Source of the DNA: a virus
Reading direction: 5' to 3' (one strand)
DNA: 34,715 nucleotides
IMG/VR virus record: IMGVR_UViG_3300020036_009482
Span: 1-34,715 of that record
Translations under genes and position numbers: made by a program
The notes under the pieces: generated by a model
Database searches by the model: none
What the model was told of the DNA's origin: nothing
What the model saw: the letters and a program-made list of their open reading frames with translations, nothing else
Part shown: in pieces, positions 3,964 to 33,555 of the stretch
How the letters are laid out: every line of letters starts with the position of its first letter
Position numbering within the stretch: position 1 is the stretch's first letter

Positions 3964-4761
3964 ATGGAATCGCGCGAGCAAATCTTTGAGGAGTTTTTCA
4001 CTGCAAAGTGGATTGCCGAAGATGGGCTCGCGCGTTTAGTTCCAAAAGAAGAAGATCAAAAGGAGCCGCACTTTAATGTATTGGGCCAAGAGAGCCCTCG
4101 TAATGATAATGGCATTTTGTTTCTAGCCTATTTCATTGCCATTTCTTGGGCAGCGGGTATTCGAGATCAAGTTAGAACTAAACAACTTCAAATTGGATCC
4201 ACAATAGAGAGACTTGTAAGGCTACCGTTTAGAGGATTGTTTAATAGAAGGGCTGCCGGAGATAAAAACCCAAACAACGTTTACGAGGCGCACGACAACT
4301 ATGTCGGAATTGTTGCACTATCTACTCTTTATGGGTTTTCTTTCACTCATGAGATACTTTCTTACGGGGGACGAAAAGGATGGAACTACAACAACGTCGA
4401 ACCAGAAGTCTATAGACTCGAAAGCCAAAGACAACCAGGAGAAGTAGCTCTGTATTGGCTTTGCGCTAGCACTAGCCCAGGATTTATTGAGTTAGCCTCT
4501 TTACTTTTTGGAATAGTTATAAACATGTTTAAGCGGAACCCGGGGGAGCACATGCTTACATGGCTTCGCTTGTTTGCACTTAACCATGTTGAAATACACC
4601 AATGGTGGGCTCGTGTGCCCATAGTCCTGGTTTCCCAAATATGGAAAATAGTTATGTATTTCAATTACGATAATTTATTCACGATAACTGGCGGATATTT
4701 TGTTGAGGATCACCCTATTCGCAGAATGGCCAAGAGGCTTGGCTCTGAATGGGGGTTTTAA
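3964..4761 (+). CDS. hypothetical protein (one hydrophobic segment)
   Basis: 265-aa ORF tightly packed after the fibre gene. No motif recognised. Confidence 0.6.
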   Translation: MESREQIFEEFFTAKWIAEDGLARLVPKEEDQKEPHFNVLGQESPRNDNGILFLAYFIAISWAAGIRDQVRTKQLQIGSTIERLVRLPFRGLFNRRAAGDKNPNNVYEAHDNYVGIVALSTLYGFSFTHEILSYGGRKGWNYNNVEPEVYRLESQRQPGEVALYWLCASTSPGFIELASLLFGIVINMFKRNPGEHMLTWLRLFALNHVEIHQWWARVPIVLVSQIWKIVMYFNYDNLFTITGGYFVEDHPIRRMAKRLGSEWGF

Positions 4762-7548: not shown

Positions 7549-10058
7549 TGCAACTAACAAAGCGTTTTTATAACCACAAAGGTTTAGATTTAAAAAGTAG
7601 TGATCTCATTCGCCCAGCTGAATACGCATCTGGGATGCTTAATGCTGAATACTCTGACGGTGGTGCTATTAAAAAACGCGTTGGTTACCAGGCGCACGCT
7701 CCATCCACGGGATTTAGCGGAATGTGGACCTATCAAAAAGTTGATGTCGATACGGGATTACAGGCTCCCGAGGTTCTGTGTGTTGATGATAATTTAAATC
7801 TACTAACCGACACTGTTTTCACGATAACTTACTCTGGAGCGGACCCAACTTGTGAATTATCGATCTTTTTAGATTCAACTACTCAAAGGTACAAGGCTCA
7901 GATTTTAGAAGGGTCTACTACTGTGCTTGATTTTGATTTAGGAGTTGGTTTTGATGAAACCACTCCGGTCACACTTGCTGATTTAAAGACAGCAATTGAT
8001 GCGATCACAAACTTCTCAGCAAGTATCACTGGAGTAACCACATCTCCTGCCGCGTTTCTTGAAACGTTAAGATTATTTGATTTAACAACTGGCCCATATA
8101 GCGGTGTTGTTGGAACTTGGTCGCAAATTTATTCTCCGACCTCAAGTCCCTTCTCTGCGCACTTTGCTACAAGAAACGACGATGATTTTGAAAACGTATC
8201 TACTATCCAGATTAATAACGTAATCTATTTCAGCAATGGAATAGATGAGGTTTATAAATACGATGGGCAGACATTTTATCGCGCTGGGATGCCGACCCCT
8301 GCTAGCTTTACTGCAACATTAGTTGGAGCTGGATCAATAACTGGAAGTAACTACATTCACAAGGTTCAATATTTTCAAATTGATGCGGTCGGAAATTTTA
8401 TTGAGGGCAATTTAACTCAAACTACAGCACAGAACGCCGCCGCTCAGAACTTTAGTATTGGAGTCCCAAACATAGTAGCCGCTAGTGGATTTAATACCAA
8501 TTGCGCAATCGTTAACGGATTACAAAGTGGGGTAAATACAATAACGGTTGATAATGGCAGTGGTGGAGCCCACACACTACAGGTTGGTGATACTGCTTAT
8601 TTCTTTGATGGCGTAAGCTCTGCCTATGTAACAAGAACAGTTACTGCGAGAACCTCTACGAGTATAACTGTTTCTGGGGCCGCGGTTAACGTTGCTGATA
8701 ACATTGTTATCTCAAACAATCTCCGCATCTTAATTTGGAGATCTAAAACCTCAGCAACGACACCGACTGCTTTTTATCTTGTTGATGAGATTCCAAATAA
8801 CTCATTTGCTGCGACTCAGACTTATGTGGACAGCAAGGTCGATGCTTCTTTAGGCGAGATTCTTTTTGAGCCCGCGACAGACCGAAGCCCTCCTCCTAAG
8901 GGAAAGTACGTTTCCCAATGGAACGGGCAAATGTGTATCGCGGGTAATTATGATTCTCCGACATCTTTCTATTTTAGCGACGTTGATGGGCCTGAGTATT
9001 TTCCTGCCGACACAAATCAGCTTTTTATTGAGCCCGGAAACGGCGACATTATTACGGGCATTGCTCCTAACAACGAGGTGTTTACTATTCATGGGAATAC
9101 CTCTTTCACCGTAATTTCAGGGGATTTGTCCACTGGTCAAATTAGGGTTGAGACAAGAGCAAGGGATGTTGGATGCGCGGCCCACGCCACAATTCAGGAC
9201 ATTGATGGCGTGCTTTGTTGGTTGTCGCCTCAAGGCCCAAGAATGAGCTCAGGCGGATCGATCCCTTCTCCTATGGGACCAGCAATTGACCCCTCTGAAA
9301 GTAACCAAGCATCTAGGATAGACCCTGACTTTAACAACGAGGGTAGAACAGCCGACGAGTCTTTTGTTTTAAAAAGGGCTGTGGGATTTAACTTCTCAAC
9401 TGCAGATAAGTACTTTCTTTTCGTTCCAGCTGAATCAGTAGAAGGATCAGATAGATACACTAACTCTAATTCAAGAGTATTTGTTTACGACAGAGTTAGG
9501 GATGCTTGGCTAAAATGGTCTAACTTAGATTTTAGCGCTGGTGTAACTACTTTTGGCGAAGAGCTCTATTTTATTGAAAGAAGGTACTCAGAGTTCGCCA
9601 GTGCCGTTACAAACATAATGTATCGAAGGCACAATCTGTTTGATGCATTTGATTACGCAGATAATATAAATGCCGTAGAATTTGATTACTCTCCTCAGTG
9701 GGAATTTCTAGGTGAGCCTAGCGTTTTAAAAGATTGTATAGCTATTCGTTTGTTCTCCATTGAGGCAGTCCCCAATAATCAATTCACTGTTACCATTGAG
9801 CAGGAAATTAATTTCCAGACCGATTCAAACGTTGCCATATTTGATTTAGAAGTATCCGGTGGTGGTTATGGATTCTCTGCTTATGGGGTTGATCCTTATT
9901 CGGATCCTAACCAAGATGCGTTTTTACATCCAATGAGTAGGTCTAGAACTAGGGCTGTTAGGCCAAGATTTAAAAACGACACAATTCACGAGGCGGTATT
10001 AATTACAGGGTGGGAGTTAGAATTCTCAACTCCATACCGACCGGAGTTTAAACCATGA
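7545..10058 (+). CDS. large tail (nozzle / tail-tubular-B-like) virion protein
   Basis: 837-aa ORF with an ATGA-type overlap to the upstream gene. The size and beta-rich repeats resemble podovirus nozzle proteins. This is an inference. Confidence 0.4.
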   Translation: MMQLTKRFYNHKGLDLKSSDLIRPAEYASGMLNAEYSDGGAIKKRVGYQAHAPSTGFSGMWTYQKVDVDTGLQAPEVLCVDDNLNLLTDTVFTITYSGADPTCELSIFLDSTTQRYKAQILEGSTTVLDFDLGVGFDETTPVTLADLKTAIDAITNFSASITGVTTSPAAFLETLRLFDLTTGPYSGVVGTWSQIYSPTSSPFSAHFATRNDDDFENVSTIQINNVIYFSNGIDEVYKYDGQTFYRAGMPTPASFTATLVGAGSITGSNYIHKVQYFQIDAVGNFIEGNLTQTTAQNAAAQNFSIGVPNIVAASGFNTNCAIVNGLQSGVNTITVDNGSGGAHTLQVGDTAYFFDGVSSAYVTRTVTARTSTSITVSGAAVNVADNIVISNNLRILIWRSKTSATTPTAFYLVDEIPNNSFAATQTYVDSKVDASLGEILFEPATDRSPPPKGKYVSQWNGQMCIAGNYDSPTSFYFSDVDGPEYFPADTNQLFIEPGNGDIITGIAPNNEVFTIHGNTSFTVISGDLSTGQIRVETRARDVGCAAHATIQDIDGVLCWLSPQGPRMSSGGSIPSPMGPAIDPSESNQASRIDPDFNNEGRTADESFVLKRAVGFNFSTADKYFLFVPAESVEGSDRYTNSNSRVFVYDRVRDAWLKWSNLDFSAGVTTFGEELYFIERRYSEFASAVTNIMYRRHNLFDAFDYADNINAVEFDYSPQWEFLGEPSVLKDCIAIRLFSIEAVPNNQFTVTIEQEINFQTDSNVAIFDLEVSGGGYGFSAYGVDPYSDPNQDAFLHPMSRSRTRAVRPRFKNDTIHEAVLITGWELEFSTPYRPEFKP

Positions 10059-22493: not shown

Positions 22494-22652
22494 ATGGACG
22501 AAGATAGGCTTGATGAACTGGAATATATAGTTCGTGAATCACCAAGATCCATGGTCGAACTCTACCGAACAGATGTCATCCAACTCATCGACCTCGCACG
22601 AGAAACCCTCAAAACTCAAAAAGACCAAGAGGAAAAAGATCTGGGGATCTGA
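22494..22652 (+). CDS. 52-aa helical ORF, probably the true N-terminus of the downstream HNH protein (frame broken at an A5 run)
   Basis: Not in the track because it is under 60 aa. It encodes MDEDRLDELEYIVRESPRSMVELYRTDVIQLIDLARETLKTQKDQEEKDLGI and ends inside the 22534 ORF. Confidence 0.4.
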   Translation: MDEDRLDELEYIVRESPRSMVELYRTDVIQLIDLARETLKTQKDQEEKDLGI

Positions 22653-22947
22653 CCCCGCCTTCCTCAAAGCAATCCGTAAACTACCTTGCATACTCTGTGG
22701 GAGCCCTCCTCCCACCACTGCCTCTCACATAAAAACCCGCGGCTCAGGAGGCAAAGACGAACCCTTCAACGTCACACCCATGTGCTTTGACTGCCACCGC
22801 TACTTTGAAGATAATCGCAGAATCGTAATAATGAACAAATCCTACTTTCGCCAATATCTGAAAGAATTAGGTTGGGAAATCTGGTTCCAAAACAATAAGT
22901 TAATCATGCACCACCCAAAATATAACGACAAAGTAGAAATCCGCTAA
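22534..22947 (+). CDS. HNH-type nuclease (DUF968/Ref-like; C-x2-C ... H ... C-x2-C-H)
   Basis: Motif LPCILCGSPPPTTASHIKTRGSGGKDEPFNVTPMCFDCHRYFE. The N-terminal 39 codons from the GTG are low-complexity and overlap a better-looking frame. Confidence 0.65.
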   Translation: MNHQDPWSNSTEQMSSNSSTSHEKPSKLKKTKRKKIWGSDPAFLKAIRKLPCILCGSPPPTTASHIKTRGSGGKDEPFNVTPMCFDCHRYFEDNRRIVIMNKSYFRQYLKELGWEIWFQNNKLIMHHPKYNDKVEIR

Positions 22948-29058: not shown

Positions 29059-29072
29059 TAACGAGGAGCCAA

Positions 29073-29384
29073 ATGGCAACATTTAACTTAACCTCCGCTA
29101 CTAATCTTTTTAAGATTAAGTACGGAAAACTATCAGCAGAAACCTATAACGCAGCAAACGTAATGCTCGGACGAGTAAAGAAAGAATATAACTTTACCGG
29201 TAAGAGAATGGACGTTGCAGTTCCTACCTCCTTTTCAGGCGGTGTTGGTGCTGGATCGCTACCCCTAGCTAACTCAGCGGCTTACCAAGACGCTCAGATT
29301 ACAGCTAAGAAGAACTACTCGGTTGTTGAAATCGAGCGTGAAGCAATTGCTGCATCTGAAAATGATGAAGGCGCTTTCGTCCGT
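29073..29384 (+). CDS. major capsid protein, exon 1 of 3
   Basis: GAGGAG RBS upstream. The N-terminus is MATFNLTSATNLFKIKYGKL... The unspliced frame runs 6 codons into the insert and stops at 29400-29402. Confidence 0.75.
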
Positions 29385-29638
29385 ATGGTTATTGCGGCTT
29401 AAGGTAGGAATACCTTTTGTAAATTGGGCAAAATCGGTGAACTCTGAGATGAGAATACCGAGGTAAGCTAGAGAGTTAAAATAATCTAGCCACCGTAACG
29501 CGTAGTGGGTGACCCCCGAAAGGGAATATAAACCACCAAGAGTGTCCGACTCCCCGAACGGGAGATAATGTACGCTGAGCTAACTCGAATAAAAGGGTTA
29601 GAAGTAGGGGATAAAAAGCCTCTACGATAACAGGTCTG
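29385..29638 (+). ncRNA. group I-like (IA-type, P7.1-bearing) intron 1 in the coat gene, ORF-less
   Basis: Helices P1-P9.1 can be drawn (see findings). A paralogous copy with compensatory changes is at 30427-30683. Boundaries are inferred from P1 (CCGU/GCGG), a terminal G, and frame restoration. Confidence 0.65.
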
Positions 29639-30426
29639 ATGACCAAAGAAGTTGTTAAAAAGGGTGTTGAATCCTTTAACCGCAACATCAGCCGTCAGCT
29701 TTTCGGTTCTGGTAGCCTTGGTGTTACAACTGCAGCTGCCGCTGGCGGTACTGCTACTGCACCCACAGTAATCATTTCTACGGCTACATGGAAGGAAGCC
29801 AATTTCGAAGAAAAGGATTACATCATGGTTGATTCTGTAGCTAACCCCTACAGCACATCAAACATCTGGGAAATCACTGCGGTTGCTCCTAGCACCCGTA
29901 CACTTACTCTTGCTCGAATTGCTGGATCGGTAGACTTGACCGGTGATAGCGGAGCTAAGACTTTGTACATGCAGTATTCCAAAGACAATGAACTCACTGG
30001 TCTTAAGACTGCTTTGGACGCCACTTCTGGAACCCTTTACGGTGTAACCGTTGGTCGACGATGGCAGGCTTTCCAAAAAGCTGCCGGCGGTTCAGGTCTT
30101 ACCACCGATTTCATGAACGAAGTTATGCTCGGAGTTGAGCGTCAGTGTGGCAAAGTGCCCAACCTCATCATCACAAGCTACGTTCAATACCGCAAACTCT
30201 TGAACCAACTCGAAGATCAGAAACAATACATCATTGAGCCCAGGATGCCTGAACTCAAAGGTAAGGTTTCTTTCCGAGGCGTTGAGTTCATGAGCAATGC
30301 TGGTCCTGTAGGTGTGTTTGTTGATCGTTTCGTTGAAGACGACAGAATGTACTTCTTGAACGATAACTTCATGACCATCTATCACCGACCCGGATCTCCT
30401 GCTTGGGCAGAAGACGACGGAACCGT
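29639..30426 (+). CDS. major capsid protein, exon 2 of 3
   Basis: Open frame continuous with exon 1 after the insert is removed. It contains ...FNRNISRQLFGSGSLG... and ...WAEDDGTV. Confidence 0.75.
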
Positions 30427-30683
30427 AAACTTAGCTATTGCGGCTTGAGGTAGGAATATCTCATGTAACTTCGGGCAAAATCGGTGAACCCTGAAACGGG
30501 AATACCGAGGTAAGTTGGGATTAAAAGCCCCCAACCACCGTAACGCGTAGTAGGTGAAACTCGAAAGAGAATATAAACCTACCAAGAGTGTCCGAGACCC
30601 AGAACGGGTTAAAATGTACGCTGAGCTTATTCGAACAAAAGAATAAGAAGTAGGGGATAAAAAGCCCTTACGGTAACAGACTG
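30427..30683 (+). ncRNA. group I-like intron 2 in the coat gene, ORF-less, paralogous to intron 1
   Basis: It has the same helix set as intron 1, the same 5' context CCGT|A, and the same 3' end ...AACAG(N)CTG|AT. Confidence 0.65.
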
Positions 30684-30792
30684 ATTTCTAAGAAAAGCAT
30701 CTGCGGATGACTACGAAGGACGATACGTGTCCTATAGCGAATTCTATTGCCCCCCGTCATTTCATGGGGTGCTCACAGGACTTGCTACCTAA
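30684..30792 (+). CDS. major capsid protein, exon 3 of 3
   Basis: A 36-codon open frame with no start codon or RBS, encoding (V)FLRKASADDYEGRYVSYSEFYCPPSFHGVLTGLAT. A terminator follows. Confidence 0.65.
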
Positions 30793-30813
30793 TTAACGTT
30801 AGAATTCTAAGAG

Positions 30814-30841
30814 CCTAGACCCCACGGTGGGTCTAGGTTTT
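30814..30841 (+). terminator. intrinsic terminator after the coat gene
   Basis: CCTAGACCC (30814-30822) pairs with GGGTCTAGG (30829-30837) around a 6-nt loop, followed by TTTT. Confidence 0.75.
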
Positions 30842-31596: not shown

Positions 31597-33555
31597 ATGT
31601 CTTCTAGAATAAAAGAAGGCCTAACTAAATTTCACGGGGAGATAGAATTCACGGCAACCGGGGTTATTGGTCCAACGGCCAGTAACCCTTGGTTTGTTGG
31701 TGGAGAAAACTCGCTTCGTATTGCCATTGAAAACGTAGGCGGCTCAAATGAAGTCGTAGTTTATGGCAAGATAAGAAACCAGGCCGCATTTGTTACGCTA
31801 ACAACGATAACCGGCGGTACTACGGGTACAACTGTAGATATTTCGGTAATCGATGACGTGTATTTTGAATGCACGGTTTATTCGGCCTCAGGTGGAACTC
31901 CTAAACTTGTCGCGTCTGGATTTGTTGTGCCTGGTAGTGGAGGAGGTGGTGGTGGAACTGTTGATCAGGGAAATCCAAATACTCTTGCCAATGCATGGCC
32001 CGTCGAGATTACCGATGGCACTGATTCTGTTTTAGTTACAGCGGCAGGAGAGCTAAATGTTATAGCAAGTGCTCAGCCTGGAGTAGACATTGGAGACGTT
32101 ACTGTAAACAATGCCGGTGGAGCTTCGGCAGTAAACATTCAAGACGGTGGTAACTCGATTACAGTTGATGGAACTGTGGCGGCTACTCAAAGTGGTACAT
32201 GGGTTCTTGGTGCTAATTCAGGAGTAGATATTGGTGATGTTACAATCAACAATGCCTCAGGAGCATCGGCTGTAAATATTCAAGACGGCGGTAACTCAAT
32301 CACTGTAGATAATGCTGCACTTTCAGTTGTCGGCGGCGGAACCGAGGCCACGGCATTAAGGGTAACAATAGCAAACAACTCAACTGGAGTTTTGTCAGTT
32401 GATGATAATGGTGGATCACTCACAGTTGATGGGACAGTAGCTGCCACACAATCAGGCACATGGAATATAAACAACGTTTCTGGAACGGTAAGTTTACCGA
32501 CGGGTGCCGCGACACTTGCTGAACAACAAACACAAACCGCCTCTTTATCGGTGTTAGATGATTGGGATGAAACTGATAGAGCTAAAGTAAATCCAATTGT
32601 GGGACAAGCAGGTGTTCAGGGTGGAAGTGGAACGGTTAGCGCCAACACTCAACGAGTTGTTTTAGCAACGGATGTTGGATTGCCTACTGGCTCCAATACC
32701 ATTGGTACTGTCAATGCTCAGCAATCCACGGCCTCTAGTTTAAATGCTCAAGTTGTAGGTTCTGGAGCTAACGGGTCAGCGATCGGAAATCCAGTTACAA
32801 TGGCCATGCAGGATCTCACCACTGGACTTAGGGCTATCCCAAATACTTTCCCATTCTCAGGAGCTCAGTTTCAACTTTGTTTAGTCCCTGATTTGCTTTT
32901 AAATTTTCAAGTTTTCAATGCTGATGGTTCTGCAAATTCTAGAACAGGATCTCCTGATGGAACTCTTGCAAACGCTGTTTATTTAGCCACTGATTCTAGT
33001 AGAAACCAGCTTATCGTTGGAAACATTGCACACGACGCCACAGACTCAGGAAATCCAATAAAGATAGGTGGTAAGACTACAAGTCTAACAAGTGAGCCAA
33101 CGGCGGTTAGTGCTGCAGGTGATAGAGCGGATGCTTATTTTGATACCAAGGGGTATCAGCATGTTAAGTCAAATGCGCACAGATTGGGAATAACGACCCT
33201 TCATAATGCGGTCACATTCAACAACACGACAACGTCTTCGAACTCATCCTCGGTTGATTTAAGCCGATATCGATATGCAAAGATTTTCTTTGTTTTAACT
33301 AAAGCCGGATCACCAACTTCAATTTCAATCGTTGCACAATTCTCTCCAGATTCTGGAACGACTTGGTGTGATTACAGAGACTGGGAATGGAGTAATTTAA
33401 TTTACGTTGCCAATCAAATCCCACTGAATGAATGTTTAGCGCTGAATGCGGCTGGAGGAGCTTTGGGCTCTCTTTTCAGATTAAGAGCAGTAGCCTCGGG
33501 GACGACGGCTGTAAATACAATAACATTAACTTCATACATAGATGCGCTAACCTAG
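31597..33555 (+). CDS. repeat-containing fibre / head-fibre-like structural protein
   Basis: 652 aa with a Gly run (GSGGGGGG). It carries internal repeats of about 40 aa: DIGDVT(V/I)NNA.GASAVNIQDGGNSITVD(G/N)...TVAATQSGTW. Confidence 0.55.
   Translation: MSSRIKEGLTKFHGEIEFTATGVIGPTASNPWFVGGENSLRIAIENVGGSNEVVVYGKIRNQAAFVTLTTITGGTTGTTVDISVIDDVYFECTVYSASGGTPKLVASGFVVPGSGGGGGGTVDQGNPNTLANAWPVEITDGTDSVLVTAAGELNVIASAQPGVDIGDVTVNNAGGASAVNIQDGGNSITVDGTVAATQSGTWVLGANSGVDIGDVTINNASGASAVNIQDGGNSITVDNAALSVVGGGTEATALRVTIANNSTGVLSVDDNGGSLTVDGTVAATQSGTWNINNVSGTVSLPTGAATLAEQQTQTASLSVLDDWDETDRAKVNPIVGQAGVQGGSGTVSANTQRVVLATDVGLPTGSNTIGTVNAQQSTASSLNAQVVGSGANGSAIGNPVTMAMQDLTTGLRAIPNTFPFSGAQFQLCLVPDLLLNFQVFNADGSANSRTGSPDGTLANAVYLATDSSRNQLIVGNIAHDATDSGNPIKIGGKTTSLTSEPTAVSAAGDRADAYFDTKGYQHVKSNAHRLGITTLHNAVTFNNTTTSSNSSSVDLSRYRYAKIFFVLTKAGSPTSISIVAQFSPDSGTTWCDYRDWEWSNLIYVANQIPLNECLALNAAGGALGSLFRLRAVASGTTAVNTITLTSYIDALT
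32080..32463 (+). repeat. intragenic degenerate direct repeats (32080-32202, 32221-32316, partial 32410-32463)
   Basis: The copies align by eye and differ mostly at third codon positions. Confidence 0.8.

Follow-up and report, generated by a model that had tools for sequence, protein, structure and literature searches.

Phage capsid genes interrupted by introns, and structural or replication genes that hold several group I introns, are already known (PMC3706429, PMC10136302, PMC11878797). In phage Twort, a member of the Herelleviridae with a 130-kb genome, three self-splicing group IA2 introns interrupt a single gene, orf142 (PMC10136302, PMC3984707); this is a case of several similar, short introns without an open reading frame (ORF) in one virion structural gene (PMC10136302), and the crystallised Twort ribozyme belongs to it (orf142 I2/I3). 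Mycobacteriophage LittleE carries one 819-bp intron with an endonuclease ORF in its major capsid gene, the splicing of which was proven by reverse-transcription PCR and N-terminal sequencing of the abundant coat protein, and the same paper cites a capsid intron of the lactococcal phage Tuc2009 (PMC3706429). The introns in td, nrdB and nrdD of phage T4 are group IA elements with endonuclease ORFs, placed at conserved sites of essential genes of nucleotide metabolism. Bastillevirinae and other Firmicutes phages have IA2/IA3-like introns, often two or three per gene, in terminase large subunit and replication genes; most of these carry homing nuclease ORFs, and the survey, in which the word "capsid" does not appear, reports no capsid-gene insertion (PMC11878797). 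Here we describe a stretch of 34,715 nucleotides (nt) from an uncultured virus (IMG/VR record IMGVR_UViG_3300020036_009482, positions 1 to 34,715; hereafter the window), in which the major capsid gene of an SU10-like phage of about 35 kb is interrupted by two inserts. These inserts are very probably paralogous, ORF-less, self-splicing group I introns of the IA type, resembling those of Twort orf142.

An earlier note on this DNA had proposed that the coat protein gene lies in three pieces and that removing two inserts restores one frame of 402 amino acids (aa). All of its coordinates were reproduced from the sequence and the ORF list of the window. Every feature given below is on the + strand. 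The first ORF (29073-29402, 109 aa) stops at TAA 29400-29402 and is preceded, 4 nt 5' of its start codon, by a Shine-Dalgarno-like GAGGAG read from the sequence (29063-29068). The second ORF (29639-30448, 269 aa) stops at TGA 30446-30448. The third open frame, which ends at TAA 30790-30792, has neither a start codon nor a ribosome-binding site, as the note had observed. Deletion of 29385-29638 (254 nt) and 30427-30683 (257 nt) joins 312 + 788 + 109 = 1209 nt into the frame of 402 aa. An intrinsic-terminator-like hairpin with a 13-bp stem followed by a T run (30810-30841) lies 3' of the gene, in agreement with the terminator proposed in the note.

The 402-aa conceptual product was searched against 5.8 billion proteins. 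Uninterrupted homologues of 397-404 aa matched it with up to 91% identity and 100% coverage, and the alignment crosses both junctions without a gap (GAFVR|MTKE and DDGTV|FLRK). Exon 1 (29073-29384; codons 1-104, ending ...GTC CGT) aligns to homologue residues 1-104, exon 2 (29639-30426; codon 105 to the first two bases of codon 367, ending ...ACC GT) to residues 105-367, and exon 3 (30684-30792; the last base of codon 367 to codon 402 and the stop codon) to the homologue C-terminus. An AlphaFold model of a homologue that is 91% identical (P0001; predicted local distance difference test score 81) was compared by Foldseek, and its best match was the capsid of phage SU10 (7z48_F, E 1.5e-10), with HK97 and other HK97-fold capsids also found. 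The Pfam family SU10_MCP matches the query weakly (E 4.8e-4) and is precomputed for many homologues. Upstream of the gene lie, in order, genes for the terminase large subunit and the portal and a scaffold-like ORF. Judged from the homologue's structure model and this gene order, the product is an SU10-like, HK97-fold major capsid protein, the fold that the note had named. A sequence-profile search of the capsid against the PDB gave no match, and GenBank phages gave neither a near-DNA nor a protein match to the capsid region. Between the window and its relative L030 (see below), the codons differ by 15 synonymous and 4 conservative changes spread over all three exons, which argues for purifying selection on the joined frame.

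The boundaries of the inserts are those expected of introns that pair with their upstream exons. Both 5' exons end in CCGU, and GCGG, a guide able to pair with this exon end, lies 9-13 nt into each intron (29381-29384 with 29394-29397; 30423-30426 with 30440-30443); in the resulting short P1, a G.U pair falls at the cleavage position. The last base of each intron is G (29638 and 30683). The junctions are ambiguous only to a small extent, with ATG repeated at site 1 and A at site 2, and this ambiguity is resolved because the register proposed in the note is the only one that gives both a 5' exon ending in U and an insert ending in G. The note was therefore right to the nucleotide, and a natural allele without the second insert has the same junction. 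LittleE is similar in its interrupted capsid gene, its 5' exon ending in U and its intron ending in G (PMC3706429); its single ORF-bearing intron differs from the two ORF-less introns of about 255 nt found here.

Each upstream exon runs on into an in-frame stop 16-20 nt inside the intron, at the same intron position in both copies (...IAA*; TAA 29400-29402 and TGA 30446-30448), the 4-nt difference in length between the 5' ends of the introns offsetting the different codon phases of the two sites. Such stops are described as frequent where group I introns interrupt genes that encode proteins (PMC3984707). The first 9-13 nt are the most divergent part of the two copies. Candidate P10 pairings can be drawn there in the same register, UGGU (29386-29389) with ACCA (29642-29645) at site 1 and CUUAG (30430-30434) with CUAAG (30688-30692) at site 2. 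A differentiation of splice-site recognition suppresses exon skipping between similar tandem introns (PMC10136302), and the differing candidate P10 pairings may be of this kind. A hypothetical join of exon 1 to exon 3 would give a frameshifted product of 112 aa.

The two introns are 80-87% identical depending on the alignment, a paralogy that the note had not noticed. Two exact-pattern scans of IMG/VR with conserved stretches recruited about 200 related copies from phage contigs 7-353 kb long; another core pattern, CCAAGAGTGTCCGA...AATGTACGCTGAG, proved too strict and gave 0 matches in IMG/VR. In about 50 of the copies one loop contains an extra segment of roughly 0.9-1 kb, which, where examined, is an ORF with LAGLIDADG-type motifs and weak Pfam support. 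From this family an alignment (A3) of 59 representatives with less than 88% mutual identity was made, and pairs were counted on a hand-written group I model with helices P1, P2, P3, P4, P5, P6, P7, P7.1, P7.2, P3', P8, P7', P9 and P9.1. In A3, 88.5% of the cells were paired, compared with 64% in shuffled alignments and 32-44% when the 3' partners were slid by 1-3 columns, and double-sided changes were found at 59 of 64 pairs; the observed pairing values were reached by none of the 500 shuffles. Pairing was 99.7% in P3, 99% in P4, 96% in P6a, 100% in P7 and 98% in P8. P3 and P7 cross as a pseudoknot, the hallmark of the group I core. P7 has a bulged base followed by a G-C pair (columns 238-384) that is G-C in 59/59 sequences and that, by analogy, would form the guanosine-binding site; the pair before the bulge covaries (A-U in 39, G-C in 19).

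The same fold was obtained independently of the hand-written model. RNAalifold recovered every nested helix (P3-P6, P7.1, P8, P9 and P9.1), with compensatory changes at 44 of its 47 pairs, and added a basal P6 stem, GGU/ACC. Folds of the single sequences gave the same helices, with z scores of the minimum free energy of -3.15 for intron 1 and -4.84 for intron 2. In intron 1 the helices fall at 29401-29416 (P2), 29424-29429/29544-29549 (P3), 29434-29438/29457-29461 (P4), 29442-29444/29451-29453 (P5), 29462-29464/29492-29494 (P6), 29467-29472/29485-29490 (P6a), 29500-29504/29571-29575 (P7), 29505-29536 (P7.1/7.2), 29550-29564 (P8), 29580-29601 (P9) and 29604-29625 (P9.1). The corresponding positions in intron 2 are 30447-30462 (P2), 30471-30476/30590-30595 (P3), 30481-30485/30504-30508 (P4), 30489-30491/30498-30500 (P5), 30509-30511/30537-30539 (P6), 30514-30519/30530-30535 (P6a), 30545-30549/30617-30621 (P7), 30550-30582 (P7.1/7.2), 30596-30610 (P8), 30626-30647 (P9) and 30650-30671 (P9.1). 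Over 60 pairs compared between the two introns, 44 are identical, 10 have compensatory double changes and 4 have one-sided changes that keep the pair, which indicates that both copies have been under selection for the fold. The invariant core positions are all kept in both. A covariance model built from 48 family members (R1) scored intron 1 at 204.9 bits (E 9e-60) and intron 2 at 217.7 bits (E 1e-63), and found no further copy across the window.

The link from this family to proven ribozymes runs through Twort. R1 matched Twort orf142 introns with 52.8 bits (E 2e-14) and 26.7 bits (E 2e-6) over the full model length, with P3 to P9.1 in register. The nearest proven relatives are the Twort I2/I3 introns, which are classed as IA2 (PMC10136302); in the window family a P7.1 helix with a nested P7.2 lies between P7 and P3'. 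The 3' ends are also alike: the family consensus is ...AUAACAnnnUG, the window introns end ...GAUAACAnnnUG and Twort ends ...GUAACAUAAUUG. Overall sequence similarity is low, however, and the P7 strands differ, being GCRUA/UAYGC in the window family and GACUA/UAGUC in Twort and in the Rfam consensus. The inter-intron exon is also much longer here, 788 nt as against 23 nt in Twort, and the host gene is the capsid gene instead of orf142. Phage IA2 introns are known to form branches with barely detectable mutual similarity (PMC11878797). Like the T4 introns, the window family also occurs in nrdD; R1 gave no match in the T4 region containing td and nrdB.

Near-identical relatives of the window provide a natural series of alleles. 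L030 and L031 (ENA, NCBI assemblies; 98.3-98.6% identical) and L201 (JGI sample 3300020037; 99.72% identical over 3902 nt) have intron 1 and lack intron 2, and in all three the empty site is exactly the predicted exon-exon junction. Besides the window, at least four contigs of independent sample origin have intron 1, in otherwise intact structural modules, and it is 100% identical in L030, L031, L201 and L202. Compared with L030, the window has no difference in the 254 nt of intron 1 and 19 in 1100 nt of exon (P = 0.012). Of the 11 mismatches to L201 in 3902 nt, six are clustered within 113 exon nt at the intron 2 site (30322, 30328 and 30424 on one side; 30687, 30690 and 30691 on the other), and L030 shares the L201 variants. 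Such a cluster has a probability of 2.4e-7 if the 113-nt span is taken as fixed, and of 3.4e-4 if ±200 nt are considered. This cluster (30322-30691) is probably a co-conversion tract, as would be left if recombination with a diverged allele had added or removed the intron. A metagenome scan for the same guide and core found, apart from L031, which was known already, two matches due to chance, so that it neither enlarged the sub-lineage of introns 1 and 2 nor found a donor allele for intron 2.

Taken together, these data suggest the following scheme. A single pre-mRNA would run from 29073 to the terminator at about 30841. Within it, GCGG of each intron would pair with the CCGU exon end to form a P1 whose G.U pair marks the splice site, the P3-P9 core would fold, and a guanosine would be bound at the G-C pair beside the P7 bulge. 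Two transesterifications would then excise each G-ending intron and join the exons, giving the mRNA for the 402-aa HK97-fold coat protein. The stop 16-20 nt into each intron may serve to halt ribosomes before they unfold the ribozyme. As DNA, the introns would be mobile: the presence or absence of intron 2, together with the flanking exon tract, points to gain or loss by homologous recombination or homing and not by imprecise insertion.

Some observations weigh against this scheme. That both introns splice, and how efficiently, we infer from the sequence. The exon part of P1 is only 4 bp long, and the P1 columns of A3 are only 37% paired and out of register, hence uninformative, so that P1 gains no support from covariation. 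The P10 pairings are short and could be due to chance. The two-intron allele was seen in this window only, and its specific 269-aa ORF is absent from the records. Finally, Rfam detected no intron family in the whole window at the gathering score, nor in 29300-30800 at E <= 10, and its group I family RF00028 had no match in 16 relatives of the inserts. The last point is weakened by controls: with RF00028 the proven td intron of T4 reached only 40.3 bits, short of the gathering score of 50 (T4 NC_000866 137955-145112; L196), and the T4 nrdB intron was not reported at E <= 1, so the negative reflects the coverage of the model. The window introns thus resemble td and nrdB in being under-scored or missed, and differ from the Twort elements, which RF00028 scores at 97-101 bits. 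The two RNA splicing events proposed in the earlier note are supported by the covariation fold and by the homology to the Twort ribozymes.

Could the inserts instead be decayed, non-splicing mobile elements (dead introns, or elements like miniature inverted-repeat transposable elements) in a capsid pseudogene of a defective phage? The lack of ORFs in the inserts and of an intron-linked homing endonuclease in the window would suit such a history, as would the silence of Rfam and the indirect case for splicing. We give it only a slim chance, since R1 scores of 205-218 bits place both copies at the top of the family with the invariant core intact, 10 compensatory changes separate the copies, the exons differ at 15 synonymous versus 4 non-synonymous codons, intron 1 recurs beside intact structural modules in at least four other contigs, and the frame is restored exactly. 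The restriction of the two-intron allele to this one contig, with the closest relatives lacking intron 2, also raises the question of whether intron 2 is an artefact of assembly, produced by mis-joining a copy of intron 1 or by merging two phage populations into a chimera. About 50 aligned columns distinguish the two introns, with the helices preserved by compensation; intron 2 has a 5' end of its own that is complementary to the local 3' exon, and sits exactly at a frame-keeping U|A junction flanked by its own exon variants. These are features that an assembler could not create, and we regard an artefact as very improbable. The stop soon after each junction superficially resembles the take-off site of a ribosomal bypass like that of T4 gene 60, so that the gaps might be crossed during translation or the coat built from separately translated fragments. 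The bypass gap in T4 gene 60 is 50 nt long; the gaps here are of 254-257 nt, have no matched take-off and landing codons (CGT/ATG and GTA/ATT) and hold a conserved ribozyme fold common to introns in unrelated genes, and exon 3 has no start codon or ribosome-binding site, which leaves this explanation with next to no likelihood. Two further classes of element were rejected. Group II introns have a 5' GUGYG, a 3' AY and six domains including domain V, and are usually longer than 600 nt; the inserts begin AUGGU and AAACU, end in CUG, are 254 and 257 nt long and match no Rfam intron family. An intein was rejected on account of the in-frame stops within the inserts (29400-29402 and 30446-30448).

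If the inserts are group I introns, a separate question is how one capsid gene came to hold two copies. In an nhmmer comparison the two introns scored 293 for each other and at most 129 for any other copy, so that each is the other's closest known relative, and they share the guide GCGG. Their target sites have only CCGT|AT in common and represent two of the three CCGTA sites in the spliced coding sequence. These features, and the lack of an endonuclease ORF in or beside either intron, would be expected if one intron had given rise to the other by inserting itself, through reverse splicing, at another CCGU|AU site in the capsid mRNA, with reverse transcription and recombination as the later steps, in place of endonuclease-driven ectopic homing. 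We consider this route unlikely. Just one event can be reconstructed, the gain or loss of intron 2 among phages that are 99.7% identical, and it carries an exon conversion tract, which indicates DNA recombination; the 13-20% divergence of the copies shows that the duplication is old; and no reverse transcriptase was seen among the window ORFs scanned. Mobility by reverse splicing is, in addition, without direct experimental support (PMC3984707). It is nonetheless conceivable, at similarly low odds, that the ORF-less paralogues record an intragenic transposition by reverse splicing and that this abundant IA-type sub-family spreads without an endonuclease of its own; if true, it would offer rare evidence from nature that a group I intron can be guided by RNA to an ectopic site inside a phage gene that encodes a protein.

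Further capsid genes of the same protein family are interrupted at other sites. In L024 (2766-3000; the same in L014), whose capsid homologue is 68% identical, a 235-nt copy of the intron family follows codon 18 (KIKYG|KLAD), a third insertion site of this family in the capsid gene. In L032, the homologue of which is 74% identical, two inserts of 192 and 191 nt (4063-4254 and 4324-4514) lie near the C-terminus; each follows ...GGU, ends in G and has canonical-looking R/S elements (GACUG/CAGUC) and a P8 hairpin. Removal of each of these inserts restores a full-length ORF. For the L032 inserts, Rfam returned nothing at E <= 1 and R1 only weak matches (E 0.016 and 0.57); their sequence has the look of a group I type of its own, with an unusually compact form. 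The novelty implied by the earlier note was overstated, as capsid-gene introns and multi-intron structural genes of phages have been published (PMC3706429, PMC10136302). What is new is the SU10-like lineage and its host gene, the occurrence of two ORF-less paralogues within a single capsid gene, the use of five insertion sites in the capsid gene family and a sizeable IA-type sub-family that Rfam does not detect.

Elsewhere in phage metagenomes the family is common, with members in nrdD, helicase and capsid genes and in probable terminase genes. It interrupts nrdD at ...RRVTGY (PF13597, E 7e-80) in L035, L055 and L072. Many copies lie directly 5' of a GKT/SFL...ILYPG motif (L038, L085, L134, L191, L143, L149 and others), probably the Walker A of the terminase large subunit. 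Among published genomes, R1 matched Bacillus phage PJN02 strongly (206 bits), in a gene for a RecD-like helicase with adjoining coding sequences annotated as "mobile intron protein" and "endonuclease", and Staphylococcus phage ROSA (127 bits). The ROSA match (L195 2327-2571; AY954961 ~7597-7841) lies in the unannotated gap between ORF019 and ORF027, in the structural module of a temperate phage, which suggests an unannotated intron in a published genome. Another copy, in L184, is in a gene with a DnaE-like motif. Paired copies a few hundred nt apart were seen in L134, L137, L141, L139, L184, L145, L115 and L037, those of L141 being nearly adjacent; with so many paired loci, twin insertion in one gene appears to be a recurrent habit of the family.

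These findings leave the understanding of group I introns unchanged, but are of use in annotation. In the window, automatic gene calling would yield three fragments or no capsid gene at all, whereas recognition of the introns gives a normal 402-aa coat protein, and the same gain applies to the relatives with introns at the three other capsid sites. As the Rfam group I model misses the family, the intron content of phages is under-counted, which a dedicated covariance model would correct. The near-identical alleles and the short conversion tract also offer a clean natural example of the movement of an ORF-less intron between co-circulating phages.

Several minor observations concern the surroundings of the gene and its relatives. 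The sole endonuclease-like gene in the window encodes an HNH protein (22534-22947; PF01844, E 2.4e-5); it is free-standing, about 1.1 kb 5' of the terminase large subunit gene, with nothing to tie it to the introns. It could be packaging-associated or a homing enzyme acting in trans. A second cluster of differences from L201, five mismatches at 31890-31941, lies inside the ORF at 31597-33555 (652 aa, no family match); a short patch of recombination, or a variable region of a tail or virion gene, is the probable explanation. On the question of the host, a scan of genome collections for the capsid family found only two contigs of metagenome-assembled genomes, L203 (JAAOYH010000061.1), from a 'Candidatus Woesearchaeota' bin and possibly a binning artefact, and L204 (QNFX01000039.1), from an Epsilonproteobacteria bin. 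The contigs with nrdD introns include L072 (2424-5006), L035 and L036, which are large phage contigs with more than 15 transfer RNA genes in arrays, and in L072 a skipping-rope RNA (RF02924) is found at 4460-4540.

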